The notes below the pieces were generated by a model. That model worked only from the letters and a program-made list of their open reading frames with translations. It ran no database searches and had not been told where the DNA came from. From positions 2,542,001 to 2,606,000 of the forward strand of contig MU004181.1 in assembly GCA_010093605.1 (NCBI GenBank): DNA of 64,000 bases. Reading direction: 5' to 3'. Shown in pieces: positions 1-28,570 of this stretch. How positions within the stretch are numbered: the stretch's first letter is position 1; each line of letters opens with the position of its first letter. This stretch comes from Lophium mytilinum. Taxonomy: Eukaryota. Position numbers and translations under genes: made by a program.

Positions 1-211
1 GGCCGCAGCAGAGCTTTAGCAACCAGCAGGTCTCGTGGCGCTCACGGTAGAAGCAGAGCAGCCATGTCGTGAGTATGCCAACTGCGACGAGGAAGACGAC
101 CGTAGAGACGATGACTATAAGAACCAGCTGTGACGGAGGAGCCGCTTGGTCAGTACCCAAGTCGCTTTCCGATCGAGAAGTCAAGGCTGGGCGTCTGGAT
201 ATAACGGGCAT
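1..211 (-). CDS. Orphan single-pass membrane protein, 3' end runs off the window (array member Z)
   Basis: Manual translation from the ATG at 211 gives MPVISRRPALTSRSESDLGTDQAAPPSQ-LVLIVIVSTVVFLVAVGILTTWLLCFY-RERHE..., open to base 1. It has one long hydrophobic segment followed by charged residues. It is absent from the ORF track because it is truncated. Confidence 0.6.
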   Translation of the reverse strand, partial: MPVISRRPALTSRSESDLGTDQAAPPSQLVLIVIVSTVVFLVAVGILTTWLLCFYRERHETCWLLKLCCG

Positions 212-699
212 ATTCAGGTATTCAGAGGACGATATCACCGAGAGCTACTTGTTTAGCACTGCTGAAACGAAGGAGTCGCAAATCGACAGCTCTGGATGCC
301 GTTGTAGTATTGTGTACCTAAGGACCCGTATTCTCGTGTCTGCGATAGACGTATCTGTGAAAGCAGGTCAGAGTTGGAGGCAGATAGAGAGCCATGGGGC
401 GACTGACTTCTCTTGTAGCAATAAAGAAACGCTTAACAATAGCTTTGTCAAACGGCCGTCTGCGCATTGCGGATGAGAAGACGAGAGCGTGAACAAAGGA
501 TGGCGGGGTGATGGCGAACGAAGGTCGTCGTCTTTGTGAGGAAGTTGCATGACGGCACGTACGAAGGCCCGTGCACGCACCACGAAGGTGAATTAGATGG
601 TAAGCGTGCACACCTATAGACGCTATGGCGGTTACGAAAGGCTGTTACACCTCCTACTGAGATTGGAATGCGTCAGGTAGATAGTCAACTATGGATCGA

Positions 700-2022
700 C
701 TACACTAACGCTGAAGCTTGTGGGAGATCGAAGCTTCTCACCACCGCGAGAGCTACCGGAGTCCATTTCATGATAGAATCATGTCCTAACACCTTCACGT
801 CAGCATTTATAGGCACCATTCGAGCGATACCACTAACCTCCGTGGTATACTATCTCCTTCCTGATGATCCTCTCCCCATCGATCCAACTGTCCACCACCC
901 CGCCGTCGCCGAGATCAATTGACTCCTTCATTTTGTCTATCTCTGTCCTCGTCACCTTGTGCCCCGAAACTGATTCCACGATTCGATAAAAGAGCTCATT
1001 AGACTGGTGGAAAGGCATTACTATATCTCCCGTGGCATGGACCATGGTCATTCGGATCTTTCTGCTTTTTTGCACCACCTCTGCCAACCTATCTGCACTT
1101 TTCCAAGTGTCTTTCACTCTCCTTCCAAGCCATGCGCTTAACCAGGGCATGAGTTTCAAGGGCGCAAAAACGGGCAACACTCCGCCAACGGAGTAGGATA
1201 GGAAAGCATTCTTGGCGTCGCTAAAGCCGGCGCAGATAACAACGCCGGCAATTTGCGAAGGGGGATCCAAATTGATGGCATACTGGGCGGCGGCACTGGC
1301 AACAGCTGTCCCAAGACTGTGCCCTAGTAATACAATGCGGTCCGCAGGGATATGAGCTTCGTTAAGAGCCCAATCAAGTACGGCGATGGCATCATTGACA
1401 CATCCGGCTTCTGTCGGAGTTCCAGTAGAATGGCCAAAGCCGCGGTAATCAAACGTTAGGATGAAGATCTTATCAGACGCACCAGACGAGAGAACGCGAT
1501 ACTCCTCGGTGCGCCGGCCCTGTCCAATTGTTGCCGTGTTACCGTGGAAATAGATCACGAGTCGCGCTTCCGGATCTTGAGCGAGAAGTTGGAAGGCCAA
1601 TCTTTCTTTCACATCAGCAAAAGGGCCAGCTTTTTCTTTCTGGAAGCTCTCAACATGTCTTGCATAGATCCCCAATGGGGCAATTAGCCAGGCGTAGAGG
1701 CGCTCTCCATCATTCGTTGGGATCCGAAATGGGGCGACTTGACTCTCTATTGCGGTCAGCTGTACTTCTCGTTGATAGTTAAAGTAGCCTACTTAAGAAT
1801 CCAAACGTTTCCGGTCTGTCTAGCTTGAACCCCCACCATATTTTGACCCAGTGCAAGTACAACATCCTTTAGGATAATCAACGTGGAGTCCGGTGAGGTG
1901 ACCATAGTATCTTACTGGCGCTGGAACCATGGGATGCTGCAGAGAAGCATACCCAAGATCCATATCCCACTCACAGCACTTAGACATACTGTGATGCGGT
2001 GGTACGCCCCCGTGGCATCCAT
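700..2022 (-). CDS. Alpha/beta hydrolase, ABHD12/ABHD13 (BEM46)-like, multi-exon
   Basis: The ORF 833-1675 has IYFHGN, FDYRGFG and the nucleophile elbow GHSLG. A hydrophobic first exon starts at ATG 2022 (MDATGAYHRITVCLSAVSGIWILGMLLCSIPWFQRQ, then a GTAAG donor). The last exon (GHDSIMKW...) follows YHGG and ends at TAG 700-702. Confidence 0.85.
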
Positions 2023-2505
2023 AATCGGTCAGCCTGTCGTTGAGGTGTAAAGGGCGTGTGAGACGCACTGATCAGCGATCGGAACAGTAGTCCGAAGAAC
2101 TAGTCCCAGTCAGTCAGGGAAGCGGAAGATCCCAACGGTATGGCGGCGGTGCCAACCACAATACTCTCCAGATGTCCAGCGCTTCAACGCATGAATTCAC
2201 TTACTAGGTCTTAAAGTGCTTCTACCTTGCGCGGAATGATGGTAGCAATGTTATCACACTCGCTCTTCGTCATGTGATCCAATCTGACATCGTCAAAGCC
2301 CCGCTCGCATTCAGCCAGTTTCGTGTCATCCACGCGTATCAGCAGCCGCGACGGATTGTCACCTTCCACGGGAAACCTAGTCCGCGGCCGATATGCTGCT
2401 GCCTAGCTAGATTGCACACAGTATATACATTTGACAGAGTCGCCTCTACCTACTCACCCTAGAGCCAGCCTCTATTCTAACAGAAGAACATTTAACGCGC
2501 TTGCC

Positions 2506-3229
2506 ATGTCCGCTCCGGCAGAAACCAGCACTCGAGTCTATAATGGCTCCTGCCATTGTGGTGGGTTTGACTTCAGCCACTATAAACATGACTTCAACTG
2601 AACTGTATAGGGGCGACACAATACTTGGTCAGGTTGACCTTCCCACCGATCCTCGACATCAACGCGAAGTCGATCCGAATCTACAAGTGCAATTGCAGCA
2701 CATGTACCAAAATGAACCTGTTCCATCTTCGTCCGATAGATCCAGCCAGCGACTTCCTAGTCCTGAGTCCCAATCCTGAGACCGACCTAGGGGACTACCG
2801 CACATTCAAGAAGGTCCAGAGCTGGTATTTCTGTAAGGAATGCGGTGTACGATGTTTCGGTATTGGTGGGGAATGGGAGACCACCGAGGTCGATCTTGAC
2901 AAATGGAAGGGGAATGAAGGGTCTGAAGGGAAGACGACAAAGGCGTGGAAGCTCAAAGCTGGAGAATGGAAGTATGAGCATGAGGGGAAGGAGGTTGTCA
3001 GACCATCTTGCTATCTTTCGGTCAATGCTGTTACCGTTGAGCCCGACCAAGAGGGCTTCTCCCTCAAGGAATGGCATGAGAAAGGTTGGATAACATATGT
3101 GGTATGTTTCTTTTTCTCCGCTCTTACGTGCATTCCGTTTCGCTATTCCTTGCTAACAAGTAGCAGGACGCTAGACACCGCGAAGGGGGCCCGAAAGTGG
3201 GCGAACCTTACAAATGGGGTTCCTATTAG
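2506..3229 (+). CDS. GFA/CENP-V (Mss4-like) zinc-binding family protein, 3 exons
   Basis: Exon 1 (MSAPAETSTRVYNGSCHCG) splices to the 2625 frame. The protein carries the CHC, CNCSTC and FCKECG zinc-ligand motifs. The last exon ends at TAG 3227-3229. Confidence 0.85.
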
Positions 3230-3678
3230 CGTCGGATTATTCAGTGGACATGATGAATGACGAAGAGATCGCTACATTTCGCACATTTTCCACGGTGCAC
3301 TCTGAAGAATCGAATTCAACGCTGTATAATCAAGCTTTTGACAAGATCGCCATCTATCGCATTCAAAAATACTGATACTACTCCACACCTCATCGACGCA
3401 CAGAGCTAATCATCTCGGCGAAAAGTCCCTCGTAAGTCCATCGCGGTGTTGATACAGGTGACCTATAGGTCGAACTGAGTGGCTAGGATTAGCTCGTTCT
3501 CGTTTTCGACATTCTTTCTGTCTGCAACGAAAAATCGACCGTGTTTTGAATTTCAACTCCTCTCTCCGCCTTCCGTGCTTGGTGTTCCATAGGATAAAAT
3601 TCTTTATGTCCCAGTCAGGTCTAATTGGTCCAGCCGACACTTTACAGGCTATCATCGTTTCAACGGCGGATGTGTCCC

Positions 3679-4167
3679 TCATCGCACGACCTGCCTCTCC
3701 GCCCCCGTCCAAACTCCGACTCCATTTTCATTTCCTTCTCTCAGCGGCGCCGACCGATCATAAGCTCTCTCTGGCGTCTGCGCCTCACGTCCCGCGACTG
3801 CATGCGACTGCCACAACATCCTATTCAGGGAATCCCACGAGCTTCCAGCGCCACGGTTCCCCTCTGTTCTGGTATGTATATTCCCCAACTCCACACTCTG
3901 CGAGCGCCCTGTCGGATCTGCACCAGCAAGATGTCGCGAACCCGGCCACCGCCACCGCCACCCAATCCGTTGTCCGCGTCTTGGGTTGCTCATCCAATCA
4001 GCGCGGCTGCAAAGCATCATGGTAGCGATGACTAGAAAGAGGAGGATAAATCCGATCATAAAGAAGATGGCGGTGAAGAATCTGGGGGGTAGATCGTAGG
4101 AATATTTCTCGTCTCCGCGTCGGAGAAGAGGAGGTGAGGCAGTGATCGCACCTCTGGCGGGTGCCAT
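3679..4167 (-). CDS. Orphan single-pass membrane protein (array member A)
   Basis: 162-aa ATG ORF with a TM-like segment FFTAIFFMIGFILLFLVIATMML, followed by an Arg/Trp-rich juxtamembrane stretch and a low-complexity tail. Confidence 0.6.
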   Translation of the reverse strand: MAPARGAITASPPLLRRGDEKYSYDLPPRFFTAIFFMIGFILLFLVIATMMLCSRADWMSNPRRGQRIGWRWRWPGSRHLAGADPTGRSQSVELGNIHTRTEGNRGAGSSWDSLNRMLWQSHAVAGREAQTPERAYDRSAPLREGNENGVGVWTGAERQVVR

Positions 4168-4734
4168 TGTAAAGGTGTACTGGAATTGGGATGGTATATT
4201 TCAGGTTATGCTTGATGCAGATAATGGTATAAATTGGGCAGGTCTGGCGAAGATTCCGCTAGCGGCGATGATACCGACAAGGCAGGAAGCTTGACCTCTC
4301 CGCGCTAGGGATTTTCATGATTCTTAAGGACTGCATCAGCATGGTTAAAAAACTTCACTTTCGTATAAGTAAATGCGTGCAGGTATACGTAGGAGATACT
4401 GTGTTGGTAGGTGACGTTACTAGATCGTACGCTTTTGATAGCCACGTCGGTGAAGGTTGAAGATGGCCAAAGTACAGTCACGAGCGAAAATGACGACTGC
4501 CTTGCAAACGAATATGCAAACGTCGCGATGAAGGGAAAGTCTTTTCGAAGATTCACAGATACATATGTGATAATTGGATGGGAGATGAATTCATTGATGT
4601 ATATTCAAGATAGGGAGATAACGAAAGGCTTAGTTTTTGCAAATGTCCTCTAAGAGAATCTAGGTCAGAGAGCCTAAACAGCCTTGCAGGTACTTACAAA
4701 GTCCCTACCAGACCAGTGCTGACTTTTCGGACAA

Positions 4735-5286
4735 CTAGCGCGAAAGGGGTCCCAGTATTGGTTTGGTCAAACGACGACCCGAAGGTTGAGAGGGAGGCTG
4801 CCGAGTGAAGTGATTCCATGGACTGGAGTGATCGAACTCCGGCAGTCGTGGCGGCTGCGAAGGGATGTGATGACCAGGCACGCCTTCCTCCTGCTGCCTC
4901 AAGGACAGGTTAGTCATTTCAATGCCCTCTGAGCCCTCGCATGGCTGCGGCGGTGAAGGCTCGCGCTTACGGTCCCGGTTGCTCTGGTTCTTGCACTTCT
5001 GGCAAGTACCGTCTCTGTAAGTTGTGTAGATCATCAAGATAAGGAACACAGTCATGAAGATGAAGAGCAGAGAGAGACATATGAGCGCGACGATTGGGAA
5101 GGCTGGGTTTGGGTAGCCACCCGATGGACGTTCGCCGGTCACGGTCTGGGTAACAGTCGCCGTTGTAGTGATGGTTGAAACGGACATCTGACTTGCTTTG
5201 GAAGGGTCAAGACTTTTAGTCAAGACCCCGGATAGCCTTTGGGAGGTATGCGCGGAGAAGGTTCCTGGAAGGGGAAATGTGGTCAT
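4735..5286 (-). CDS. Orphan single-pass membrane protein (array member B)
   Basis: 183-aa ATG ORF with a Thr-rich N-region, TM segment PAFPIVALICLSLLFIFMTVFLILMIY, CQKC plus a basic patch, and a Pro-rich tail. A TATATATA lies at about 5401. Confidence 0.7.
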   Translation of the reverse strand: MTTFPLPGTFSAHTSQRLSGVLTKSLDPSKASQMSVSTITTTATVTQTVTGERPSGGYPNPAFPIVALICLSLLFIFMTVFLILMIYTTYRDGTCQKCKNQSNRDRKREPSPPQPCEGSEGIEMTNLSLRQQEEGVPGHHIPSQPPRLPEFDHSSPWNHFTRQPPSQPSGRRLTKPILGPLSR

Positions 5287-6021
5287 CAGAAGGCGATTGA
5301 CAAGTGATATGGAAAGTCTTTAAGATCAGAGTGAGTGGATTCTCAATCTCAGGGCTGCTTTAGTCTGATGCTTTTGTCGTAGAAAACGCGGACATTCCCG
5401 TATATATACCGAATTCGGATTCCGTGCCCATACAATGCTGGTCTTACAATGTTTAGGTTTTTGTGCGCTCCTATTGGTCCAGCACACAAAGGTTTTCTCT
5501 TTGGGTTCTAGAGTATGCTAGGTTGTTATCGAAGACATGTTTTTATTGACCAGGCGCTTCGCGCAATTTGACCTACCACGAGTGGGGGAGACAGGCATTG
5601 TTTAGTGGCGCCCAAAGCTACTGCTCGGAAGCAAGGTAGATCGAATCGCCTGAACTCTGCAAGTGAAAAGCAACGATACTATTTGAAGCTATTCATAAGC
5701 TTTCAGAAAACAGCTATCAATCGAATGCAATGCCATTAGTTTTGATCGAGGACTTCGAATTTAGAGACGAAGGCGAAGTCGTTGCATGAAACACGCCATG
5801 TCCAACATCACTTACAAATGGCATATGAAGTAGTTAGCTGGTCTTCGGATCGAGAGATATTTTTGAGATTCTGAGTTACGTATTCGCTATCGCGGGGAAA
5901 TGTGAGTCGATTCTCATTTCTAACTTCTATCGAGCCAGCGAATAGGGTATTTAGAAGAAGTAACTCAGCCAGCAACATGATCCGAAGTGATCATATCACT
6001 GATCTAGATCAGAAAGCAAAC

Positions 6022-6864
6022 CTAAGTCCGCAGCTCAAATGCCCATGCAGTATCAGGGCCATATTTGGTCTCCGGATGACAGTGGCGCCTAACCTGTACT
6101 ACCTTCCGTGGTGGAAGTGGAGGCGTCGGCGGACTTCGTGCCTTCAAAGAATTCTCGATAGGTGATGATCTAGGCGGGATCGGTGTAAAAGCCCACGCGT
6201 TCTCTTCGTTAAACTCCAAGTTTGGATGCATTCCCGTCTTCAGGTACACACGAGGAGGCTTCGCCGGTTCGGCCAAATTCATCACCATTCTTCTCGGTCC
6301 CCTCGCCATATGTGAGAGATCGGGCCTTTCCCATGGCAATGCAGGCCTTTGCGGAGCTTGAGATCGTGCTTCGTCGTCTTCTTTTGGTTTGAACCACCCT
6401 TCTCTAATGGGATTTGTCTCTTCCTTACCTACTATGTTGTACTCTTTGGGCGATTGCTGCCTTGCTTGGAGACGAGGAGGGGGTTCTCTTCTCGCCTGCT
6501 GAGCTCCGCGTGATACCTGCGTTACTATGGCCAGCGGAGGTGCGTCTGGGCCCCTCCGTCGATGGTGCAGGGTCCTAGCCCCAGCCTCCTCCTCCCTCGG
6601 AGCATTATTCCTCGTTCTGCATCGGCATAGCACTATGCTCAATGCGAACAGTACCGCGAATCCTAGCGCAGATGGTACAAGGATTGCTACCACTTTCTTT
6701 GTATCAAGAGGGTCAGGAGTCTTGTAGGTTTCAGGAGTAGGCACCCCTGAGAAGAAGGACTTCGAGACTGTGCACGGAAAGATCACTCCCGTTTTCCAAC
6801 ATGACGGAATGTTTGTAGGTGCTGGCTCGTCAGCACGCCCGACGAGAGATTGCATTGGAGGCAT
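6022..6864 (-). CDS. Orphan single-pass membrane protein (array member C)
   Basis: The first ATG of the 313-codon ORF is at 6864 (MPPMQSLVGRADEP). TM segment VVAILVPSALGFAVLFALSIVL is followed by CRCRTR and a long Pro/Arg-rich tail. Confidence 0.7.
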   Translation of the reverse strand: MPPMQSLVGRADEPAPTNIPSCWKTGVIFPCTVSKSFFSGVPTPETYKTPDPLDTKKVVAILVPSALGFAVLFALSIVLCRCRTRNNAPREEEAGARTLHHRRRGPDAPPLAIVTQVSRGAQQARREPPPRLQARQQSPKEYNIVGKEETNPIREGWFKPKEDDEARSQAPQRPALPWERPDLSHMARGPRRMVMNLAEPAKPPRVYLKTGMHPNLEFNEENAWAFTPIPPRSSPIENSLKARSPPTPPLPPRKVVQVRRHCHPETKYGPDTAWAFELRT

Positions 6865-7434
6865 GAATACTGTTTCTGACTGCTTAAAGAAGTGGAGTAC
6901 TGACTGCCTGACCCGTATGGAAAAGCTTGCGAAGCGGAAGGGAATTTTTTTCTTATGTTGCAAGCAGATAAAATGTCGTGGTAAGCAATCAACCTCTCGG
7001 GGCTAGTGACTCTTTATGTGTACTTATGGAAAGGCTTTGACAATATCCTTTGTGTGTTTGTACAAACAATGCCGTCCCCTGATGTGCATAGGCGAAAGTG
7101 TTCTAATTTCCCCTTAGGCACCGCAGCTTTGTAATTTCACAATGTCGCACTCCGTATTATCCTTTTCGAACACTGTTGTCCGTGGGATCATCCTCAAAAT
7201 AACTCTCTGCGCATCGAGTCTCGACATCAATAACCATTCTTGAAGGCCAAAAAAATCAAATTTAGTACTGTAGCTGAAGTATCATAGGAGACTGGGATCT
7301 ATTGCTTATCTTACCTAAGTGCGGCTACCATTTTGATAACCTCTATTTACTCATTGCTAGCAAATGAGTACTGGAGCGGCTCACATAGAGCCCGCATTCT
7401 AACTCAGCTTCTCGCCGAGAATCTGCCTGGTCTC

Positions 7435-7909
7435 TTACTTGGGATGGTAGGTTGGTGGTGGACGAGTGAGTAGAAAGCACGCACTCCCACCCGATCCCTC
7501 AACCCAGGCAGGAGCTTGCTGCCCAGGGTCGGTCACTAGAGCAGCTTCAGCCAGGTTGCTAGCTCGAGCAGTGGTTTGTTGAGCCGGTTGCGGTCTACTG
7601 AAGGGTACATCAGCCGCCCATGCCTCGATATCATTGGCGCTGCTTGTAGCACCATTTACCTGTTGATTGGGACTATCAGGCGAAGGAGCTAGCACCAAAG
7701 CTAGCGATGGCGCACAAGATGGCACACAAGATGATTGGTCTGCCATCTGGAAGAGCAGAAGGGTTTGGGTCTGAGGATTCAGCCTTGAGACGGGAGTCTT
7801 GTGGTGGATTTTTCAGGTCCAAAGAGTTTGGGAGAGACTGCGTGTGCTCGTACCTGGGGGTTTCGAAAGCTTTTGGAGCACAGAACTGATGAGGTAACTT
7901 AGCTGACAT
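7435..7909 (-). pseudogene. Frameshifted paralog of array member E (array member D)
   Basis: Two ORFs overlap in different frames: MSAKLPHQ...PIILCAILCAI and LALVLAPSP...NDIEAWAAD...ARASNLAEAALVTD. The second resembles the C-terminus of the gene at 8437-8877. One frameshift near 7700-7715 joins them. Confidence 0.55.
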
Positions 7910-8436
7910 TCCTTGAGTGATATATATGTCCAAGAGAATTGAATTGCGTTTTCACAACTCGACGAACTTTTGCAGGTTTCTTTATTCACACCAGGTCAGG
8001 CGAGCGAACAATGTTTCGCGTTCACAATGCACTCTCATTAGCTATTGATGAAGAAAGTCGCAACGCGCGCCACAAAATACTAGTCTCTAGCGTATGAAGA
8101 GAAAGCGGGTCACGTGTATCGTCGACTGTTGGCGAGTTTCGATTATCACAGAAGTCCTGCATCAAGCAATAGTTGCTCATGTCACAGTATCAGTGTTTTA
8201 AGTTGCATGGGGATGTATGTTATGAGAATTGGGATCTATCGTTTACCTTGAGCGAGTGCTGATATCAACTGGATATCTGTAATGCACCTTTGTGGAGTCG
8301 TGGAGAGCCTACTATCAGCTTAATTGAACCATCGAGCCTCCGATATACCACTGACGGCTCGTTTCTAGAACTCTAAGAAGGCGAAGGGTGTTATCTTGTT
8401 AAAGTTACTCAGTTCGTAGCCAGGTGGTTCGGGGTG

Positions 8437-8877
8437 CTACCGCCGGCTGTCAGTCACCCGAGCGGCAGCGGCAAGGTTGCTGGTTCGGGTAGGTTGGTGA
8501 CTCGCCTGAGTTTTAGTGATTTTTGCATCAGAATCATCTCCCGGCCTCCAATTAGCGGCTCGGACTTCGACATCTTCGACACCAGGTGCTCGCTTCGTCT
8601 TCCTGAATACTTTCGAGATGGCGAAGCCAAGGGTCAAGATGGCAAGTACGCCCACGAAGATCCCCACTATGGCTATAGCCACAAGTATACCCACCTTGGT
8701 ATCATGCTTAATGGATGCGGACGTTGTCGAGAGAGTGGGCACCCACGATGCGGCTGGAGGTGCCCCTGTGGGAGTCGGAGTCCAAGCCGGAAGAGCTCGT
8801 TCTAGAAGTGCATTGACAGTTGCTCCTGGGGTAATGGGTTGCTTCGACACTATTGGGCTTGGAGTGATAAAAGCCAT
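8437..8877 (-). CDS. Orphan single-pass membrane protein (array member E)
   Basis: ATG at 8877 (MAFITPSPIVSK), a Pro/Thr-rich N-region, TM segment VGILVAIAIVGIFVGVLAILTLGFAI, then SKVFRKTKR (positive-inside pattern). Confidence 0.75.
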   Translation of the reverse strand: MAFITPSPIVSKQPITPGATVNALLERALPAWTPTPTGAPPAASWVPTLSTTSASIKHDTKVGILVAIAIVGIFVGVLAILTLGFAISKVFRKTKRAPGVEDVEVRAANWRPGDDSDAKITKTQASHQPTRTSNLAAAARVTDSRR

Positions 8878-9806
8878 GGTAGGTTGCAAGGTTTGCGTTG
8901 GAGCTGAAGAAAGATGAATGATCGAAAGAGAGATCAGTGGGTGTAGGATGGGACTACACGAGACTGCGAAGTTTAAGAGTTTTGGAATGCTGTCTCTGAG
9001 AGTTTTCAGAGAAGAAGACAAAAAGTTCTTGATGCAAGAGATAATCTAGAATTTGTGGTTGTCATCAAGGTTTCGCGAGAGGGTTTATATCCCGAGAGCT
9101 CTGCATTGTGACTTAAGTAGTCCACAAATCTTCAGGGCTTTCTTGCTGTGTAGCTATAAGGAGGAATTTCTGTTCATAGGAGATATACTTTGGTCATCTA
9201 ACAATGTCTTCGTCGGCAATTACCTATGGCTCGCATAGGGTGTCCACACTTCGATAGAACGCTTGCAGTTGCTTTACGTCCTCATCGGAGCAAAGAATCT
9301 ACCCGAAATATATGCCTCCGGCTTGCTTTGTTGTTCTTGTCTGATACCATATGCATGTCTGACGTCCTGATTAGAATTTGAGGATACAAGCTTGATTTTT
9401 CTGAAGAAGAAACTGTTTTCCACGGGGTAGCGTAAAATACCCGTTGCTTTGTAATGTTATTATCTATGTCTAGGCCACGTTGAGCTTTAAGCATCCTTCT
9501 CACGGCTAGAATTTAATGGTCCTACTCTTCAGAAACTATCAACAAGGACTGGGCTTACTTTGAGCTGACGAACATGGCTTCATTTAAAAAATGTCGAGCC
9601 TAGGCCGGAAGATAATTCCGCACGACCCTACCCCGGTCTTATACTTCCAGTATACTTCCAGTACCTCCAGCAAAATGGCGCTTCAGAAGTGCCGACTCTC
9701 GGTCCGTTGGCGGATCGCAAGTTCGGATTAGTTATCTCACGAGTAGTTTGCCGTGGGTATGGCCTCCAAAAGTTGCAGCAGTACGTAGTCGTCTGTGGGG
9801 AAGATA

Positions 9807-9820
9807 CCGAGGCGCCGAGG
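9807..9820 (+). promoter_or_regulatory. Two tandem CCGAGG motifs, putative FarA/FarB (Ctf1-type) fatty-acid response elements
   Basis: CCGAGG at 9807-9812 and 9815-9820, about 110 bp upstream of a peroxisomal thiolase ATG. CCGAGG is the established core for Aspergillus FarA/FarB regulation of beta-oxidation genes. Confidence 0.65.
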
Positions 9821-9926
9821 CACCCTCGAGTTTAAGATCCCGATTCCTAGCTCATCCGCCATCACTCCTTTCTGACACCCTCGCCGCCATTGCAACCTCA
9901 GTATCCTCTATAACGCTCCATTCATC

Positions 9927-11364
9927 ATGGCCGAACGACTCAGCTCCATTCTCTCGCACATCACACCCAGCAGAAGCGGCCTCTCCACCATGTAAGCTAA
10001 GCCAGCTCCATCCGCGGAGCTCTTCCCCGCATTATTCACCGAAATTGAAGAGGTTCTATACGCAAGTTCAATATATACATATACTGACAGTCCTCAGAAC
10101 CACCAAGAATGCCGATGATATAGTCATTACGCTTGCGATCCGGACACCCCTCACGAAGGCTGGCAAGGGTGGCTTGAAGGACACGCCGCTGGACGGCCTG
10201 GTGTATAAGCTTCTCAAGGAAGTGGTCTCGAAGTCAAAGATAGATCCGGCGTTGGTGGAGGATATCTGTTTGGGCAATGTACGCTTCCTCACCCTTGCCA
10301 ATGTCCCCAGCAAGCTCGAGACTGTTGCTTGAACGAAAGCTAATGGCATCTTCCAACAGGTCTCCGACGCTAAAGCAGCCTACTACGTCCGCGCCGCAAT
10401 GCTCGGTGCAGGCTTCCCTAATACCACCGCCGGCTCCTCCGTCAATCGTTTTTGCAGTTCCGGCTTGAAAGCTGTACAGGACATTGCGAACCAGATCTCC
10501 ACCGGTAGCATCAGCGTCGGGCTTGCATTAGGCGCGGAACACATGACCACGGGTGGCGACCGCCTCGAGCGACCCTACTACGACGAGATATTGCAGAACC
10601 AGGAGGCGTGCGACTGTATGCAGCCCATGGGACAAACCTCAGAGAATGTAGGAAAGGATTTCGACATCAGCCGCGAGGCGCAAGACAGGTACGCCACGGA
10701 GTCATACAGGCGAGCAGAGGTAGCCCAAAAAGCGGGCTGGTTTGACGACGAGATTGCGCCCATTTCTGTCAAGGTCAAGGACCCCAAGACGGGCGAGGAG
10801 AAGACCATCACTCTCACAAAAGACGAGGGTCCTCGGTGGGGAACCACGTTCGAGGCGCTGAACAAGATCCGTCCTGCTTTCCTTCCGCATGGCGACCGTA
10901 GTACTGGTGGCAACTCGTCCCAAGTAACCGATGGCGCGGCCGCTGTGCTGCTCATGAAGCGCTCCAAGGCTGAGGAGCTTGGTCAACCCATCCTAGCCAA
11001 ATACGTCGGCGCCACGGTAGCTGGTCTCGCCCCACGGATTATGGGCATTGGGCCCTCCATTGCCATTCCCAAGCTGTTGACGAAGTTCAACATCACCCTT
11101 GCTGACGTCGACCTCATCGAGCTGAACGAAGCTTTTGCCAGCATGGCCGTGTACTGTGTCAACACCCTGAAGATCGACCCAGCCAAGATGAATGTGAGAG
11201 GTGGCGCAATTGCACTAGGACACCCCCTGGGATGTACAGGCGCACGGCAGATAGTGACCGGTCTCAGTGAAGCCAGGAGGCAGAAGAAGAAGATCTTGCT
11301 CACCAGCATGTGTATTGGTACTGGTATGGGGATGGCCGGGTTGTTCGTCAACGAACAGATCTAA
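9927..11364 (+). CDS. Peroxisomal 3-ketoacyl-CoA thiolase (POT1/FOX3-like), 3 exons
   Basis: Motifs NRFCSSGL (catalytic Cys), NEAFAS, GGAIALGHPLG and SMCIGTGMG. Exon 1 (MAERLSSILSHI) contains a PTS2-like nonapeptide RL-X5-HI. Introns lie at about 9992-10098 and 10278-10359. Confidence 0.95.
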
Positions 11365-11722: not shown

Positions 11723-13649
11723 CTAAACATGCCTCCTTCTCGCCCACTTAGTCAAATACTCTCTCCCAGCCAACCGATATGTATCTTCTTCCACATAACT
11801 ACCCCCTTGCTGCTTCGTCTGCAGCACTAAATTCAACCCCCTCTTCCCATCACTATACTTCGGCCATTTAGGCAACCCTTCCGCATTCGGACTCCCACCA
11901 TTGATAAAATTGACCCACTGCGCGCTCATCTGATCACTCAACTCCTTGTGCTCCGGCCACGGCCCGACAAACTGCGGATTCGCCATCACGAACGCTACCT
12001 CGCTGAAGTGCGCAACGCCCTTGTAGGCGGGTGCCAAGCTCCCCGTAAGATCGAGATACGTCGCGTTCGTGCTGTTGACGAAGGCGCGAGTGTTGAATCG
12101 GTAGATGTACGTAGGGCTGTACTTTGCGTAGTTGCGGGCATCACTGAGACGCGTTGCATGGTAGAATGCATCACCGAGAATGGCGGCGATCCGCTTGTAT
12201 TGATACCCCTTGTCTGCGAAGCGCTCGGCGCCCGTGTTGAGCGGAATACCGAGAGCAGGGTCGTCTGGGTAGAGTCGCATAATCTCGCGGACAGTGGAGG
12301 GCGGGAAGTCGAACCCTGTGCTGTTGAGAAGGTAGGAGTAGACATCGTCGTCCGTGTTGATGACGCCGTCGGCTGGGGCGTTGTCGGTACCCTCATCGCT
12401 GTTAGTTCCGTAGAGATGCGGGATATGGGCGAAGCGGCCAGACTGCAGGAGCTCGGTTGGGTAGTTGGGGATTATGTCGCCGTCGACGGTGGGATAGAAG
12501 CCGGGGCCGCCAACTTTGGAGCTGTCCAAGAAAGGGTATATAGTTTCGTACGGAATAGTGCGCAGACAGGCTAACGTGTCGATGGCCTCAGAGCAGTTTA
12601 CTTGGGATACGAGTGTGTTATAGATTGGTTGGTACCATGAAGAGCCGTTGTACCAGGCGGTAGTCGCACTACCAGATTCCTGAATGGAGCGGTGGAAGAG
12701 GCCTGAAGTTTGACCTCCATAGCTTAGGAGGAGTTGGCCCTAGAAAACCACATGAGCAGAGTTCACTAGATACACATTGGTGACGATGAGCGAAGTTCAC
12801 ATACAATTGCAAACGAGCCAGCCGATTCTCCCCATATGGTTACGCTGTCTTTGTCTCCACCAAACGCTGCTATGTTCTCGGAAATCCAGGCTAAGCCCTT
12901 TCGCATGTCTCGAAGAGCCAGATTGGTGTTTCCAGAGCCCTAGATCTAGATCAGCACTATTTGATAGAGGCAAGAAGAGGTCCCTTACCTGTACTTCAAT
13001 ACTATATAGCATACCCCAACCACCCTTCCGATAGTTTATAGAAGCGCCAATAATAGGCTTTCCGATCTCCACGGATCTTTGAACCAGGTATGTGAGATTG
13101 TAGTTCGGAATACCGCTAGTTCCCACTTGATAGCTGCATACATGTGACTCATTAGTAAAGAGCTCCTTCATAGTTTATTTGACGCTGAGAGAAAGGGCCA
13201 GTCTCAATGCATTCTTACGACCCGAGATGATATTTTGAGTTGGAAATCATCGGAAAAAGAACTGACCTTCCACCATGGATCCAGAGCACTACTGGCAGCT
13301 TCTCATATCCTTTCAATCCAGCCGGCTTCACGATATTGATACTAAGACAATCCTCGCTCATTCCATAAACCCCATCAGACGCCAGGTCATTATCAGGACA
13401 GGCATTTCCGTACTGCTTAGCAGCCCGAACTCCTTCCCACGACTCGTTCAGTCCCTGGGGAATCAGAAACCGATTTTGTCCGCCAGTGTCTTGGGCATAT
13501 GGAATGCCCAGGAAAAGTTCCTGCTTGAATTCAGGTAGAAACAGACCAGAATACGAGCCATTGATCACCTTAACGATTGGATCTGTAGCAAGAGTCACCG
13601 CAACGAGGTATGAGAGAGACAATGCCTTCCGGAGTAGCCGCGACCTCAT
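11723..13649 (-). CDS. Secreted type-B carboxylesterase/lipase, multi-exon
   Basis: Signal-peptide-like N-terminus, then FLGIPYA, SEDCLSINI, WIHGG, WGESAG (about 12815-12835), GTNSDEG and VAHFSEV. Confidence 0.93.
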
Positions 13650-17084: not shown

Positions 17085-18227
17085 TCAATGGTAAGAGTTC
17101 GAGGCCTGGTACGAGTTCGAGCCTCCGATGGTCTGAGCGCCAGCACGGCTGTCGTAAGCCAGGCCATTAGGGCTCTGAGTTCTGCCATCATATGTCAGAG
17201 AAGGGCGTGGCCAGAGCATGAAAGCAGGCATGGAAGGCTGCGAGTAGACAGAGCTACCAAGGACGCGGAACTGCTGATGAGCCTGATACATAGAGTTCCA
17301 CATCGGGCAATGAATAGGGCAGGTGCATTGCATAGGGTATGGATTTGGAGTTGAGTATGGATTCGGAGTTGAGTATGGATTTGGGGCTGAGTAGGGGTAG
17401 TTTTGAACAAGAGAGTGGTCGGGATAGAACCCCATAGGGTGGTAGGGAAGTATAGGTCGTGATTGCATGGCAGGCTGATTGAGAATAGGGACTGAATACG
17501 AAATAGGAGGGAGGTCATCGAACATGCTTGTCCTCGGGCGTCAGATAATGGGAAGTAGTGAGCAAACTGTCGCATACCTGAGTATCTTTGGCTCCCTCAC
17601 AACGTCCTCAACATCCGCAGTATCGGCTTCACTGTGGCTTCTCTTTGTACCCTTCTTCAAGGCAACTCCTTCGTCGTTCTGCCGGGGCTTCTTCGCCTTG
17701 CCCGCCGCCTGCACAGCAATCTGCTCGCCACCATCGGAGTCTACATCTCTGTAGGGTTCTTTCTCCTTTTCAGTAGAGGCCCCTCCTTTCTTTTCATTCT
17801 GCTGACGTGTGTCTTCATCACCGAGGCGGTTCATGGTTTCAAGAAGGCCCTTGTCGCCGAAGTTGTGCGGCTGTCCAGCGGTGTACTTGCTCAGCGCCTG
17901 CTTCATTCTGGCCACCTTCTCATCACCCATTCCGCCTTCCTCGCAACGACGATACACACGCTTGATGAGCTTGATATGAGACTCCTCGATGGTGCAACCC
18001 AATTTCATGGCGAGGACTGCAAGCATCACGATCTCGTACCGCGGCTGCGGGCGCATCTTCTGGCGTCTGTCGAACATCGCCTTGAGCAGGCCGTCATTGA
18101 GCTTGTCAACAGTGACGGCGGGGTCATCGGGAAACATAAGGTCCTCGACGCCAGCTTCGTCGGCGAGGTCGGCTGCGATGTCGTAGTCATAGTCGGACTC
18201 GAGGAAGTTGAAGCCCCAGGCACCCAT
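17085..18227 (-). CDS. Hypothetical protein with an MGAWG N-terminal helical domain (DUF4259-like) and a Pro/Tyr-rich tail, 2 exons
   Basis: ATG at 18227 (MGAWGFNFLESDYDYD). A GTATGC...CTGAC...AAG intron at about 17527-17577 joins it in frame to the 17085-17525 ORF. Confidence 0.65.
17337..17390. repeat. 3 x 18-bp coding tandem repeat (YS[AT]PNP)
   Basis: Units gtatggatttggagttga, gtatggattcggagttga and gtatggatttggggctga. Confidence 0.85.
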
Positions 18228-18960
18228 CCTGAGTTTCAGTGACGTGAGCGTAGTGTGCGTACTGACAGAGAAGTCTCTGAGAAGAGTTACACTGGATGAG
18301 AATGGTGAGGCGAGCGAAGGGAGAGATGGGAGTGATAGGAGAGATGAGATGGAATGACGCATGTTGAGGTTGAAATAAGCTATCCCCTAAGTCCGCCAAG
18401 GTGACCACGTGAGCGTCGCAACACTCCCTCCATCTCAAAGACTACTCAATAAGAAGCCGAGAGATGAGTATAAAGAGCTCAAGTAACAAGCACTGATGTT
18501 GCCGCTTGGATATGGGACATATTGATTCATATTGGCCGCCTTATTGTCCAACTGGATCAAGCTCGAAGTTAGCGAGGATCTAAGGCACGATGACCAACTG
18601 TTGAATCTTGTATTAGGGCAGGATGATAGATAAGTATCTTGCTGTTGGTAACGGTTCGTGCGTGGCATTATTAATCCTACTGCATTAGGTATGCTCCTCA
18701 CAAATTATGTCTCTCTCCCTACTGCATATCGTTTTCTACAACCCACCCTCAACCCAACTCGTCCAAAAGCCAGATCGATGGATCCAATGTCCAAATGTAC
18801 AGACTCCAAAACATGTGAAAACCAACAGTCCAAAAAACTCCGCGGTATGAAGGGCTGAGTCTTCTACTGCGTGCCGCTGAGCAAACCCTGGCAATATCAT
18901 TCAGCATATTTGTCTCCAACAAAGGTGTAAGAATAGCAATGAATCATGTAAGCTCTTGGC

Positions 18961-21749
18961 TTACGAGACTTGAACAAACTGCCCAATGGCAGGGACTCCG
19001 TCCACCAACACATAGACCACGTATGGCCCAGGCGGCGCAATGTTTCGAGTGGGTGGCATATTGACGGTCAGTTGTTGCGCTGAAGCCCCAGCTTTGAATC
19101 CGGTGCTGTCGAGAAAAGCCATTCGGTGACCCATGTGTACTGAGTGTGTCACAAATCCACCATGGTAAAGTGCAACTTTGACACCCTTCGCATTCGTGGG
19201 TGCATTGAACTGGATCCCAAACGATGACCCATCCGCCTGGAGAGTCGTGGATGTCAATTTGACACCTGTGGGGCGCCTTTTAGCAGCATCTCCTTGCAAG
19301 TACGGAGGTGTGTATATCTCAACTCGGAATTCGGTGATAAAAGGGATTTGTGGCGACGACGAAAGCACAGGTTGCTCGACTGGGTTTGATCCGGCAATCA
19401 TGAGGGTGCCATCGAGGAGTAGTAAGGCGACCGAGTGATACAGACGTGGTATGTCAGTACTTGCGCCAGTTGTCCAGCGTTGGCCGAGGCTTTTAGCCGG
19501 ATCGTAAATGAGAGCCTCAAAGGTTGGCCCGGCTGCGAGACCAAAACCTTGGGCTCCTTTGTTGCATCCGTTCAAGAAGATTACTGTACCGTCCGGAAGC
19601 AATGTGCCTTCGACCATACCTCGGCCTTCGGGCATGCTGTCCATCTCCCAGGATGGGTTGGTATCAAGCGGTCGTATACGTCCGCAAGAGGGATCCGTTG
19701 GAGAGGTGATGTCCTGGTAGGCTCCACCGCCGCAAATAATAACGTCTGGATTCCACTGAGAGTCGCTGGATAGTGGCAAGAGGACCGAGCCACCAGTGTT
19801 GGGGTATGTGCGGAAGTCTCCGGGCAGGTCAGCAAAATTGCGGATGGTCTTGCCAGTTGAAACGTTGAAAAGCTCCGATGACTTGGAAACAAACACAAAT
19901 AGTGAGCCATCATTTAGCAGATGCATGAAGGGATACATGTAGTAGGGTTGGGTCTTCACGAGAATATCCATGGAGATACTGTTGCCGTTTGAGATACCTG
20001 AACGATCAAGAATCTCGTACGTGGGATTGTTGTTCGCTTTGACACTGGGATCGAGGCCGTTCAGGCTGCCTGATGCGACAAATATAGTACCATCCGGCAT
20101 GATTTGCGCCGATGGATACCATCTTGCCGTATTAAGCTTATTTCCAGGCTCATTCCAGTCCTTTCCATTGAGCGAATCATCTGTTGCCGACCTATTGAGG
20201 TAGCGGATGCCCGTGAAGCCGTCGCCAACAGTCGGATCCATCCAAGCCAAGGGAGCATTGCCACCAAGTGCAAGAAACTGTCCGTCCGCCAGAAAGATAC
20301 CGCCAGCACAAAATGCGTTCGTTTTGTAGGCTAGAGGGACAACAGAGTTATCTTGAGGATTGAACTCCGAGGAGTACGCGAATTGGCCATTGGGTAGCTT
20401 GAGATCGGTGAAATTTTCGACCTTATCTAGGAAGACGACACGGCCATTGGGTAAGAGACCAGCATGCATAGCAGGCACGCCAGACTTTCCAACCACTTTA
20501 AAAGATCCGGGATTAGGGTTCGCAGGTGCGGGGCTCGGTCCAGGGGCGGGGACCACGGGGCCTCCAAGACAAGGTCCAGACTGACAGCCGTCACCGCAAT
20601 GTGCGGTCGTGTTCCCACAATAGCCATACATTGAACAACATGCTCCTTGGTTCCAATCTCCGCAGACAGTGCCGCCGAAGTTGACACCACAAGAACCATC
20701 AGTAGTAGGCTTCCCAGTAGCAGAGGGATTCGCGGAGATGGTTGACGATGGCTTGCCAAGAACTGGTTCACCGGATGTGGTTACTGAGGGGGGAGTGCTA
20801 GAGACAGGAGGTGTGCATCCACTCTGGCACCCCACGCCGCAATGATCCGGAGTGGTGCCGCAGTATCTAGAAAACATCAATAAGCGAAAGCGAATAGCTA
20901 AGGTATCATATCACTCACCCATACTGTGAACAGCAGCCTCCGTATTCTCCATTTGGGTCACAAGTCGCTCCGCCGAAATCCTTTCCGCATTGTCCAGGCG
21001 GGGGGCTTGAAGAAGGCTCGGCAACTTTGCTAACAGAAGTTGGGACGGTTGTGGTGCTGCAGTCGCTCTGACAACCATTTGCAGGCAAACAGTAATCATC
21101 AGTGCTTCCGCAGTATCCGTATTGACTACACAGTGTTACTATGCGCCTTAGATCTTGGATTTCCAACTCACCTGCAGCATCTACCTTCGGGTTTATTGGG
21201 ATCGCAAACCGCTCCACCAAAGCCTGAGCCACAACGACCATCTAGCCTCGGGGAAGCAACTGAAGCGCTAGGGACCGCAGGGGCCTTATTGACGGGTATT
21301 GATCTACACCCCGACGAACAGCCCTTTCCACAGTGAGCTGGAGTACTTCCGCACTACCCATGATTAGCCATTGTGAGCCCATACTACAGTGGATATGTTT
21401 TACCCATCCGTATTCACTACAGCACGCGAGAGGTCCGAGACACAACGTGTTCCCATAGTTCGGTCCGCATCTTTGGTCGCCTCGCTCTTCTAGTATAGCT
21501 ACGTCACGTCGAAACGATCGAGGGTAGAGGTCTTCGGTTGCAAGAACCGCTTTGCAGCTATTTCGTAATTTAGATTGGTTCCTAAACGAAGGGGATCGCT
21601 CACATGTTTGTTTCGGTGCACCGCTGACCGCGCAGACACGAGCTATGCTCTACCGATGAGTAATTGCATGTCGGCTGTACCCAGTGAAATTTTATGTTGG
21701 CCGTTACGATACCGACGAAGACTGCGATGGAAAGGGTTGAAATTCGCAT
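18961..21749 (-). CDS. Secreted AA5 copper radical oxidase (glyoxal oxidase-like) with four N-terminal CBM18 chitin-binding modules
   Basis: Signal peptide MRISTLSIAVFVGIVTA starts at ATG 21749. Four CCS-x-YG-[WY]-CG hevein repeats are split over small exons. The catalytic domain has NAFCAGG, RWYPS, RTYPNTG, RLYHS and THS, and ends PPGPYVVYVLVDGVP. Confidence 0.92.
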
Positions 21750-25488: not shown

Positions 25489-26787
25489 TCAGTCGTCCTT
25501 ACAACCAAAGCACCCGCACCTTGTCCACCTTCGCCATCGCCCTCTTTGCCTCGATTTCCCGTCGACCTCCCTTTCCAAGATCACACCCACACCCGCGCCA
25601 GTAGCACTGCCACTCTCCCTCCTACCCACGAACCCAAAACTTGATCGACTGCCTCTCCATCCTCGCCGCAAATAGTCCACCAAGCCGACCTTCTCATCAT
25701 CATCGTCTTCCCACACGCTCACTGTGTTCTGTAAGCTGTAGCTCGCACGGTGAAGCGGTGTGTTCGCAGAAGTGGACATCCGGGTGGTGCCGATGGTGGT
25801 GGGAGTGGATGGATAGAGGGAGAGGTGATACTCCGGCGATGATGCGAGCAGACTATTTGGGTTGTGGCGCGAAGATGCAGTGCTTGGAGGTGTAGATGGG
25901 GGCGGAGAGGTGATGTTGCTGTGGTTGAACGTCGGCAATAACAGCGGGAAGGAGCAACCGACGGGAGTGGTTGGTTGCGGGACGGGCTTTCGCGGAATAC
26001 GAGAAGCCGGAGTTGATGTTTTCGAAGATGGCAGATCGTGATGGAGTTCTGGGGATTCAGATGGCCGATCGTGCGTCCTAGAATAATCGAGTGATGAAAG
26101 CCGTATGGGAAGCGTCCGTTGATTAGCCTTAGCGGAGCGTTTCGGGGACGTTTGTATGGATTTCGAAGTTGATGATGCTGCACTACTTCGAGAGTTGCTA
26201 GGAGTGTGAAGTTTTTGACGTTTGCCAAGATGGACAGCGGTAGAAGTACGCTGCTCTGTGCTCAATGGTCGTGAGGTGTCCTCAATATGTGGTTTAGAAG
26301 TCGCGGTGGTTTCCTTCGGCTTGCAGTCTTCGCATAACGTCGAAGGTGAGGTTGCTGAATTTTCACATGCTTTGCACATCGTCCTGGTGAGTGATGTTCC
26401 TTGCAGCATGTTCTTCCGCTGAGAGAAAGACGGAGGGGTTCCAATGCGAGGGCTCGGCGCGACTGAGGAGGCAGGTGACGCGGCTGGAGCTTTTGGGGAA
26501 GAATACGGGTCGTAGCTTTTGATGATATCTAGAACCGTACCGCTGGAGAACCTTTGCGACTCCAGAGCTCTCAGATGTAAGCTCGAAAAGGATGTTTCCC
26601 TTGATTTAGATCTTTCCCGTGCGCATCGTTCGTATTCGTCCCAGATTTGCTCCGTATTTTTCGGCGAACATGGCGGTGTTCTTGGATCCGTGCATGGCGA
26701 TGCAGTTCTCTTCAGCGAGGAAGAAGTGTATAGAGGTAGTCCGAGCCCAGCACTCAGAGTAGGAGCACACGATGAAGCGGTCGACAT
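25489..26787 (-). CDS. Hypothetical Ser/Pro/Thr-rich, probably disordered protein
   Basis: Uninterrupted ORF of about 430 codons with its first ATG at 26787. It contains CKAC-X9-CEDC, a WEDDDDEKVGLVDY motif and a Cys-rich C-terminus. Confidence 0.7.
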   Translation of the reverse strand: MSTASSCAPTLSAGLGLPLYTSSSLKRTASPCTDPRTPPCSPKNTEQIWDEYERCARERSKSRETSFSSLHLRALESQRFSSGTVLDIIKSYDPYSSPKAPAASPASSVAPSPRIGTPPSFSQRKNMLQGTSLTRTMCKACENSATSPSTLCEDCKPKETTATSKPHIEDTSRPLSTEQRTSTAVHLGKRQKLHTPSNSRSSAASSTSKSIQTSPKRSAKANQRTLPIRLSSLDYSRTHDRPSESPELHHDLPSSKTSTPASRIPRKPVPQPTTPVGCSFPLLLPTFNHSNITSPPPSTPPSTASSRHNPNSLLASSPEYHLSLYPSTPTTIGTTRMSTSANTPLHRASYSLQNTVSVWEDDDDEKVGLVDYLRRGWRGSRSSFGFVGRRESGSATGAGVGVILEREVDGKSRQRGRWRRWTRCGCFGCKDD

Positions 26788-28570
26788 GTTGAAGTGCAAG
26801 ATGGAGTGCAGGGACCACCTCGAGATGGGGTAAACAGTGGTTGGATGAGCGCAATCAGTGCGATAACCTTGATAGGCGCGTAATCAGCAGCAATCAGTCA
26901 TATGTATAGATGTGGAGATCCCCGCTTGGTTGGTCTCAAGGGGTGAGACACATTGTTTATGAAGGCACAAGAGCAACCGGCTAGGCTGAAGAAGGGGGGA
27001 GGTTGGTAGGAACTGAAGTGGCCAGTTTAGCGGAGTGGGATCCGAGTCCCTGGATTTTGGCCACTTGTTTGGTCTGAGGCTCCACGGCTACAGAATCCGG
27101 ACGTTCTAGAGACCAGTTCGTATCCTTCGTTTCGGCGTCCGGGCCCAACGGTCCAATTACTTGCCGCTTGATGACGAGCATCCCTCCCTCGAGGGAACGA
27201 AGGGAGGACGAAGCAAGGGGCGAGACGTCGGCAATGCACGCAATGGTGGCGCGATGCGAGAAACTGTATCCTAGGACGGAGGCGCACCGAAGAGAACAGT
27301 GCGGCGATCATACGCTCCGAATCCCTCCAAAACAATAAGAACTGATATGATAGTGTTTGGCAAAGAAACGCCCTCGAGAATCGGAAAGCCTGCGTGCATC
27401 CGCATTGGAGAAGCATGGTAACGCAAGGGTAGTGCATCTACGCGACCTGTGGTGAGACATTGAGGAATGCGACCTGGCTGGAGGAGGAAAATAACAACAG
27501 AATACAGGGTAATCTCTGGTAACGTTGTGATGTCTCAAGATGGTCAAGCGAGCCCTGGTCTACGATGGTCGCTTGTGCTCATCGAGTCATCGTGGGCGTA
27601 GAGCAAAGTTTGTATTCTACGGCAAGGTGTTATGTAAATTCCAGACAGAAGAACAGCTGCGTAAGGAGTTGTGGTTGCAGAAATCCTTGCGTGAAAGGAA
27701 GAGCCCGAATAATGGTCTGGACCATGAACTGCAGCTCTCGTTGGAGAAGTGCGAAACTAAGTGCGGAGGATTAGAGATTCCGATGGCTTATGTGGCGTAT
27801 ATAGTGCATGAACGCTGAGAGTCGATGAGCCCGTAGATCGTATGAATCGATTCAGTCTCAGTTTGTGCCTGTGTATCTTCGTGTCGTGAAGGCTGAAAGC
27901 ATGGAGTCGTAGTCTTTAGTGAGTTGCGGCGAGCAGAACGCCTGCGAAAGATAGCATAGCGTCGATCACGGAGGCGTTATTGCGACCTGTGTAGTCCAGG
28001 CCTGCCGTCGTATGTAAATGAGATGCAGTGCTGGAGAGTCGGTGCTGAACTGATGTCGTCAAACGTCGCGAAGACGGCCTTGGAACCACTCCTCCTCCTC
28101 CGCTCCAACCTAACCCGGAAGACAGCCCGGGAGGACCCACCCTTCAGGACGGCTTCAAGCTTCCATGATTCGACTGGATTATTAATATCTACCCTCGCAC
28201 CGCTTTCTGACCAGAGCATCGAATTAAGGCTCGGGAGATCGACCTGCTATGCTCATAATAGCAACTGATCGGTGAGCTTTTGTTTAGCCGTGCGGAGACC
28301 CGTCACGAGAAAGTGGTCGGCTGCAAAATCATCGGAGAATATGCGCCAAGCTCCATCAACCAAGTATCGATTGCCAATGCAATCGCGGAGTCGGGCTCGA
28401 TGCGTAAATATAATTACACAAGCTGGTTCCGCATGTGCCGGATCGTCGTGTCTATTTACGAATCTCTTCTCCATGAATCCACCCGAACCAAAACCCACTG
28501 ATACTTGGTTCTGGTCTTGGGTCTCGACATCGTATCCCAACTAGGATATAGAAAATCCGCATCGTTGACC

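Follow-up and report, generated by a model that had tools for sequence, protein, structure and literature searches.

A 64,000-nucleotide (nt) stretch of Lophium mytilinum DNA (assembly GCA_010093605.1, contig MU004181.1, positions 2,542,001 to 2,606,000) carries at its left end a row of small minus-strand open reading frames (ORFs) with predicted transmembrane helices. This locus raises the question of whether the ORFs are genes and, if so, whether they form one family or one co-regulated system, as a preliminary description of the stretch had proposed. The whole stretch, referred to here as the window, has a GC content of ~50% and short spliced introns, and is of fungal character. ORFs were defined as ATG-started open frames and listed over window positions 1–10500. 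The listing reproduced the minus-strand ORFs that had been described at the positions of A, B, C, D, and F (lettered in order). The single ORF reported at 7435–7909 was instead found to be two overlapping ORFs in different frames, denoted E1 and E2. The row consists of the following elements:

ORF A, 2–211, minus strand: N-terminal 70 codons only, open at the left window edge.
ORF B, 3679–4167, minus strand: 162 residues, helix at residues 33–53, public gene model P0004.
ORF C, 4735–5286, minus strand: 183 residues, helix at residues 65–86, followed by YTTYRDGTCQKCK.
Gene D, 6022–6864, minus strand: 280 residues, helix at residues 58–80, public gene model P0001.
E1, 7676–7909, minus strand: 77 residues, a 58-residue N-tail and a helix, with the stop inside or just past the helix.
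E2, 7435–7746, minus strand: 103 residues, a tail bearing an F-like motif, in another frame than E1.
Gene F, 8437–8877, minus strand: 146 residues, helix at ~62–81 (hydrophobic run to ~86), public gene model P0003.

The account that we favor, with confidence no higher than even, is that the row consists of separate genes, most of them restricted to the lineage, which encode small single-pass membrane proteins with the N-terminus outside (N-out). Such proteins would be inserted by a reverse signal-anchor, without a cleaved signal peptide. Their Ser/Thr/Pro-rich N-tail, possibly glycosylated, would lie outside or in the lumen, and one helix would cross the membrane. Past the helix, the flank is basic and often contains Cys, which makes it a candidate for S-acylation. 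The disordered tail would lie in the cytosol and act, if at all, via short linear motifs, perhaps in an adaptor role.

The shared architecture was examined with helices called as the best 19-residue Kyte-Doolittle window. Five ORFs each had a single strongly hydrophobic 19-mer, with scores of 3.2 (A), 2.89 (B), 3.08 (C), 2.53 (D), and 3.06 (F). The helix was preceded by an N-region of 28 (A), 32 (B), 64 (C), 57 (D), or 61 (F) residues, of which 28%–45% were Ser, Thr, or Pro, and the extreme N-terminus was hydrophobic in none of these five ORFs. The 15 residues after the helix contained more Lys and Arg than the 15 residues before it in all five (A 2/0, B 4/2, C 3/1, D 4/3, F 5/2), with a small margin in D. 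Because of this positive-inside bias, an N-out topology with a cytosolic C-terminus is predicted for A, B, C, D, and F from sequence rules. Within the same 15 residues after the helix, Cys was present in A (2), C (2), and D (1, with a second at the end of the helix). The sole juxtamembrane Cys of B is the last residue of its helix, and F has none. The architecture that had been ascribed to the row, namely no N-terminal signal, a Ser/Thr/Pro-rich N-tail, one helix, and a basic or Cys-containing C-flank, therefore describes A, B, C, D, and F well.

A row of this kind is not expected by chance. Among the 68 ATG-started ORFs of at least 100 residues in the 64-kb window, seven are helix-bearing, and B, C, D, and F account for four of these seven. 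When positions 3400–9500 were simulated 500 times with a first-order Markov model, the simulated sequences held on average 0.198 ORFs of at least 140 residues, and a helix-bearing ORF of this length occurred in none of the 500. The row of ORFs with helices is thus far beyond chance and non-random.

Among these ORFs, gene D is the most firmly established. Its ortholog P0002 from Mytilinidion resinicola (283 residues) aligned over the full length with 72% identity (E = 7e-128); 204 of 283 columns were identical, and the alignment contained one 3-residue indel and no break of frame. Identity was spread over the whole protein, with 74% in the N-tail, 78% in the helix, and 71% in the tail, and reached 79% in the last 100 residues. 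The 57-residue N-tail contains two conserved Cys residues (Cys22 and Cys31). The helix is directly followed by LCRCRTR and then by a tail of ~200 residues. The conserved short motifs include TLHHRRRGPDAPPL, PPLPxRK, and two copies of AWAF; PPLPxRK fits PxxPxR, the class II SH3-ligand pattern. AlphaFold2, run on the alignment of D and P0002, predicted a helix at residues 66–86 as the sole structural element, with a mean predicted local distance difference test (pLDDT) score of 44. This fits a disordered protein, although the two-row alignment is a weak basis for the model. A search of solved structures (PDB) with the D profile gave no matches at E ≤ 1, and a metagenome scan with the same profile gave 215 pattern matches, none of which was confirmed. 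The Atlas neighbors of D were clusters without names, made up of hypothetical transmembrane proteins from fungi (scores 0.94 and 0.91); they share at most 154 features with D, under the guide value of 170, and serve as a lead only. Despite its conservation, D had a codon log-odds of −0.05, and its tail lay below the coding range. Since conserved D itself scores low, the codon test is weak for tails of this type. By sequence comparison, D is a real, conserved gene of predicted single-pass membrane type. It defines a small uncharacterized conserved family with clear short motifs.

Transcription was followed in RNA run X3, which was used as contigs, so that strand could be read from splice sites only and expression levels could not be ranked. 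All seven pieces listed matched the window at ≥99%, without differences. The run contained at least 11 joints with canonical splice ends, and because these spliced joints were absent from DNA run X1, X3 is taken to be RNA-derived. RNA-confirmed minus-strand introns were found just upstream of ORF A (355–407) and of ORF D, the latter being:

Intron 7239–7314, minus strand: RNA-confirmed, CT..AC joint, one contig, side 61; 375 nt upstream of the D ATG.

This is most simply a 5′-untranslated region (UTR) intron of D, which would place the start of the D transcript inside or just below the E2 ORF. Bins 5601–6000 and 7601–8000 had no cover in the run and 6001–7600 was very thinly covered, from which nothing follows as to whether D or E is expressed.

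Gene F was coding-like in its codon use. Its frame was the best of six, with a codon log-odds of +0.131 (coding mean 0.133, non-coding mean −0.076). The helix is followed by the basic SKVFRKTKR and a short tail. A jointless RNA contig of 745 nt (record 4, 8303–9047) spans the F ORF with UTR-like margins of 134–170 nt. The three word-based protein searches covered targets of 0.55–1.75 times the query length; for F, among proteins of 80–256 residues, the search at E ≤ 0.1 returned only its own model P0003. On its sequence features, F appears to be a real but young or fast-evolving gene.

The neighboring E is likely a frameshifted relic of an F-like gene. Its frame is broken at the end of the helix, and the tail in E2 shares the motif SNLAxAAxVTD with F (14 of 29 residues identical; BLASTP E = 3e-4 in a single comparison). 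At the DNA level, E and F could be aligned over ~40 nt at ~77% identity, in the motif region only. We also considered that E1 and E2 might be joined by an intron. The candidate donors were weak (GTGCGC and GTGTGC) and the helix would be lost, so this model was set aside.

ORF A runs out of the window and has a helix at residues ~29–47, followed by the Cys-rich LLCFYRERHETCWLLKLCCG. It is separated from the other ORFs by two enzyme genes, as the preliminary description had stated. The features in this region are:

Intron 355–407, minus strand: RNA-confirmed, CT..AC on the plus strand; between the hydrolase stop (~635) and the A ATG (211).
Alpha/beta-hydrolase gene, coding sequence from 2028 to 635, minus strand: Abhydrolase_1, E = 3e-14; five RNA-confirmed minus-strand introns in its span.
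GFA-like gene, 2407 to 3226, plus strand: GFA, E = 0.0036, under the Pfam cut-off.

RNA contig record 2 covers positions 1–354 and reaches 479 nt to the left of the window. No frame reads through the intron 355–407, and the hydrolase frame stops at 635. This intron is probably a 5′-UTR intron of A, or else a 3′-UTR intron of the hydrolase gene. As judged from its 70 codons, A is probably a real but young or fast-evolving gene.

For ORF C, the public annotation and the plain ORF disagree. The public gene models of B, D, and F correspond to the plain ORFs, whereas C is modeled differently:

P0006 model of C, minus strand: start at 5187 (Met34), exon to 4971, intron 4894–4970; 138 residues.

The second exon of P0006 lies in another frame than ORF C and ends near 4694. 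The 77-nt intron carries the strong signals GTAAGC, CTAAC, and CAG, and this splice was present in no RNA contig among those listed for run X3. The earlier statement that the row needs no introns therefore holds for the raw ORFs and fails for this public model. The codon log-odds of C was +0.159 at 5188–5286 and +0.238 at 4972–5187. Downstream, it was −0.065 for the plain-ORF tail compared to +0.117 for exon 2 of P0006. Only the N-terminus and the helix of C look coding. In the protein search at E ≤ 0.1, C matched only P0006, the genome's own model. At least with its N-terminus and helix, C would be a real but young or fast-evolving gene, and the conflict between its public model and the plain ORF flags an annotation problem. 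Separately, the TAA stop of P0006 lies within GTAAGT, itself a possible donor (candidate intron 4650–4697). Joining C to B via this candidate minus-strand intron gave no coherent frame beyond it and was rejected.

Two plus-strand features bear on ORF B:

Competing ORF 3606–4025, plus strand: 139 residues, antisense to the B tail, first ATG of the plus-strand reading of record 3.
Intron 4664–4738, plus strand: RNA-confirmed GT..AG, CTGAC branch 15 nt before the AG; abuts the ORF C stop.

The N-terminus and helix of B (4006–4167) had a codon log-odds of +0.19, and its 108-codon tail (3682–4005) scored −0.155. The GC skew of this tail was +0.33, whereas the 63 training windows averaged −0.123 and reached at most 0.251. 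The plus-strand ORF 3606–4025 had a codon log-odds of +0.122, the best of six frames, and its codon use and GC skew were more coding-like than those of the B tail. It had no Pfam match and no usable Atlas match, with low recognition in the latter. The intron 4664–4738 is carried by a low-depth contig of 1826 nt (record 3), which spans 3493–4659 and 4735–5393, i.e., both B and C. The joint, recorded as 4659/4735, was cut at +4, and CT..AC was given by none of the five possible cuts. The intron is thus of the plus strand only, and the RNA that covers B and C must be, at least in part, antisense to both. Record 3 starts 60 nt past the end (~3432) of the contig of the GFA-like gene, and the antisense RNA over B and C is plausibly low-level read-through from this plus-strand gene. 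A coding role for the plus-strand spliced RNA across 4664–4738 was dismissed, as no frame runs through. A candidate B homolog, P0005, was also dismissed: it is a repetitive protein of 2580 residues in which B residues 46–93 matched in eight stretches with 23% identity, a low-complexity match. B is doubtful as a gene on these sequence features, and may be a shadow of the plus-strand feature.

Next, we examined whether the members form one family or one co-regulated system. All 21 pairs of translations were compared by Smith-Waterman alignment with 200 shuffles each. Three pairs stood out, namely E2–F (z = 3.6), A–B (z = 3.0), and D–F (z = 2.95), and the other 18 of 21 were at the shuffle level. 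The A–B and D–F alignments run mainly through the helices, and whole-sequence shuffling favors such alignments. D and F share the helix entry DTK(K)V-ILV, which lies within their alignment. D and E had been named as the similar pair in the preliminary description; if its letters follow the order of the ORFs, it is E2 and F that stand out instead. The proposed tandem family thus retains a weak local paralogy of E2 and F, and lacks support from the remaining 18 pairs. At the DNA level, an old tandem family was not apparent: positions 1–9600 contained only six two-copy repeat matches of 15–29 nt, none of them between ORFs. Pfam assigned no family to the seven ORF translations; the best matches (E = 0.014–0.17) were all below the cut-off and confined to helices.

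The proposed co-regulation was addressed on either strand of the 450-nt upstream regions that belong to A, B, C, D, and F. No 7-, 8-, or 9-mer occurred in at least four of these five regions (shuffle mean 0.42 for k = 7), although this is a weak test. Conservation in relatives was seen for D in the sister genus, whereas C and F were unmatched in searches covering sister-genus annotated proteins. The neighboring genes are ordinary metabolic and carbohydrate-active enzyme (CAZyme) genes, which lends no support to the suggested role in mating, fusion, or recognition. Sequence and upstream comparisons do not support the view that the members are demonstrably one family or jointly regulated.

Several observations weigh against reading the row as separate genes. 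The support for the members comes from DNA, RNA, and sequence comparison. The codon test separates poorly (coding 0.133 ± 0.092, non-coding −0.076 ± 0.113) and serves as a relative guide only. The composition of the B tail is anti-coding, and the plain-ORF tail of C is below the coding range in codon score. Neither C nor F had a homolog at E ≤ 0.1, though the same database returned the D ortholog. No B homolog was visible in a search run on 50%-identity cluster representatives, in which a close ortholog would stay hidden. The sole contig over B and C among those listed has a plus-strand intron and may be wholly antisense, and the contig over F gives no strand. It is possible, though on balance less than likely, that D, perhaps with A, is the sole functional gene and that the other four (B, C, E, and F) represent proto-genes or noise in the annotation. 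They would then be open frames in a gene-poor stretch with low transcription, partly read-through or antisense from the GFA-like gene, and their hydrophobic stretches would come from the known propensity for helix-like segments in ORFs that are young or non-genic. Two reports (PMC7005711, PMC10063215) describe emerging de novo ORFs with transmembrane propensity in yeast. This explanation accommodates the missing homologs of B, C, and F, the plus-strand spliced contig over B and C, the disagreement between P0006 and plain ORF C, the broken E, and the absence of Pfam matches, as well as the B tail with its GC skew of +0.33 and its codon log-odds of −0.155 next to +0.122 for the antisense ORF. 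However, it does not predict that four helix-bearing ORFs of at least 140 residues would lie on one strand, when none arose in 500 simulations. Furthermore, F and the N-terminus and helix of C reach the coding range, and in each case none of the other five frames scores better; thymine is not enriched in the ORFs (0.19–0.26 compared to 0.223 in training genes); the N-out charge bias holds in five of five; and the E2–F motif implies a coding ancestor.

The reading of the preliminary description, in which the six are an old, fast-diverging tandem family or a co-regulated surface cluster (fusion, mating, recognition) whose similarity has decayed until only the architecture is left, is improbable. 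Against it stand the 18 of 21 pairs at the shuffle level, the alignment via the helix in two of the other three, the absence of DNA repeats, of 7–9-mers common to at least four of five promoters, and of a mating or fusion context among the neighbors, and the finding that D alone is detectably kept in the sister genus. What it does explain is the architecture and strand common to five or six adjacent ORFs, the E2–F motif (BLASTP E = 3e-4), and the DTK(K)V-ILV helix entry of D and F (z = 2.95); the Atlas neighbors of D among fungal hypothetical transmembrane clusters (0.94, 0.91) are a lead in the same direction. A further, still more speculative proposal is that genes for small N-out membrane adaptors undergo birth and death in the 3.6–8.9 kb block, which would act as their nursery. 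Non-genic sequence or local duplication (E/F, perhaps D/F) would supply new genes with a single helix, most of which would soon degenerate, like E. Now and then one of them, like D, would be retained as a conserved scaffold with short motifs and palmitoylation. In that case, a few related genomes could be compared at this locus to trace how membrane proteins are gained and lost.

Returning to the run of separate genes, its members were compared with known systems. N-exo/C-cyt signal-anchor (type III) single-pass proteins are grouped by topology and not by homology. A, B, C, D, and F resemble this class in that they have no N-terminal signal, an N-tail of 28–64 residues, one hydrophobic segment each with the best 19-mer starting at residue 29–65, and a C-flank Lys/Arg bias in five of five. 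Their topology is predicted from sequence rules, and the class says nothing about function. Fungal single-pass sensors and anchors with Ser/Thr-rich outer parts include Opy2, Mid2/Wsc, SKG6-type proteins, and Psg1. Like such sensors, members of the row combine a predicted outer segment rich in Ser, Thr, and Pro with one helix and a putative cytosolic docking tail. Opy2, Mid2, WSC, and SKG6 were absent among the ten Pfam matches at E ≤ 1 of the seven ORF translations, a range in which HMMER filters drop most matches above E ~0.1. Psg1 (PF14610) was matched below the threshold by A (12.1 bits, E = 0.17) and D (14.1 bits, E = 0.042), compared to a cut-off of 30.1, and both matches covered only profile positions 143–186, the helix region. 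PMC13233613 names Opy2 among the transmembrane proteins of the HOG (high-osmolarity glycerol) pathway.

Vertebrate transmembrane adaptors such as LAT, PAG, and LIME (PMC2194117, PMC3342071, and PMC2803307) offer a further comparison, in the sense of a "works like" analogy. Similar features are a short outer stub, one helix, and a long tail, predicted to be unstructured and cytosolic, with conserved short motifs in D; the Cys next to the helix in A, C, and D is a possible counterpart of the juxtamembrane palmitoylation motif. Unlike these adaptors, the row shows no sequence relation to them, F has no Cys, and the motifs of D are Pro- and Trp-based; tyrosine motifs with Src/Syk-type kinases are not a fungal system. 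Neither tyrosine docking motifs nor LAT-type homology was found, as the D profile matched no structure at E ≤ 1 and Pfam gave no match. The row may resemble membrane-anchored adaptors (LAT-type, yeast Opy2) functionally, by analogy only, and tests of family membership were negative. Another comparison is with the de novo membrane ORFs of yeast, which according to PMC7005711 emerge from thymine-rich sequence. B, C, and F are similarly short, with no homolog found and one predicted helix. In contrast, the ORFs studied here are not thymine-rich (A 0.262, B 0.208, C 0.220, D 0.192, and F 0.210, compared to 0.223 in 20 training ORFs), and D is conserved across genera.

As it stands, the locus is a grouping of genes for small hypothetical membrane proteins of a kind that is common in fungi. 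It would matter more if synteny showed mutual descent of the members or a non-genic origin of some. The neighboring stages, i.e., a conserved gene, orphans, and a broken copy, are useful for the study of membrane-protein origins.

The rest of the window encodes a thiolase, a carboxylesterase, an amidase, a glyoxal oxidase, an MFS transporter, GH18 and GH5 proteins, and others. Two antisense pairs of long open frames were observed. In the pair 11726–12739 (minus) and 11831–12571 (plus), the minus frame represents an exon of the carboxylesterase type (E = 1.5e-32). In the pair 17544–18386 (minus) and 17562–18239 (plus), neither frame had a Pfam match. Open frames of 925, 503, 464, and 411 codons at 43525–46299 (plus), 39685–41193 (plus), 25492–26883 (minus), and 31004–32236 (minus), respectively, had no Pfam match at E ≤ 1e-5 and are probably further uncharacterized genes. 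At 53526–56590 (plus), DUF3433 was found in each of two neighboring long frames (E = 2.6e-15 and 5.9e-24), and the first of these frames also contained three helix-like segments in a simple hydrophobicity scan. A glyoxal-oxidase-like protein with an N-terminal chitin-recognition domain is encoded at 18964–20910 (minus). At 37380–38857 (plus), a GH18 frame is followed by a frame with a chitin-recognition domain, and 51468–53019 (plus) encodes a GH5 protein with CBM_X2.

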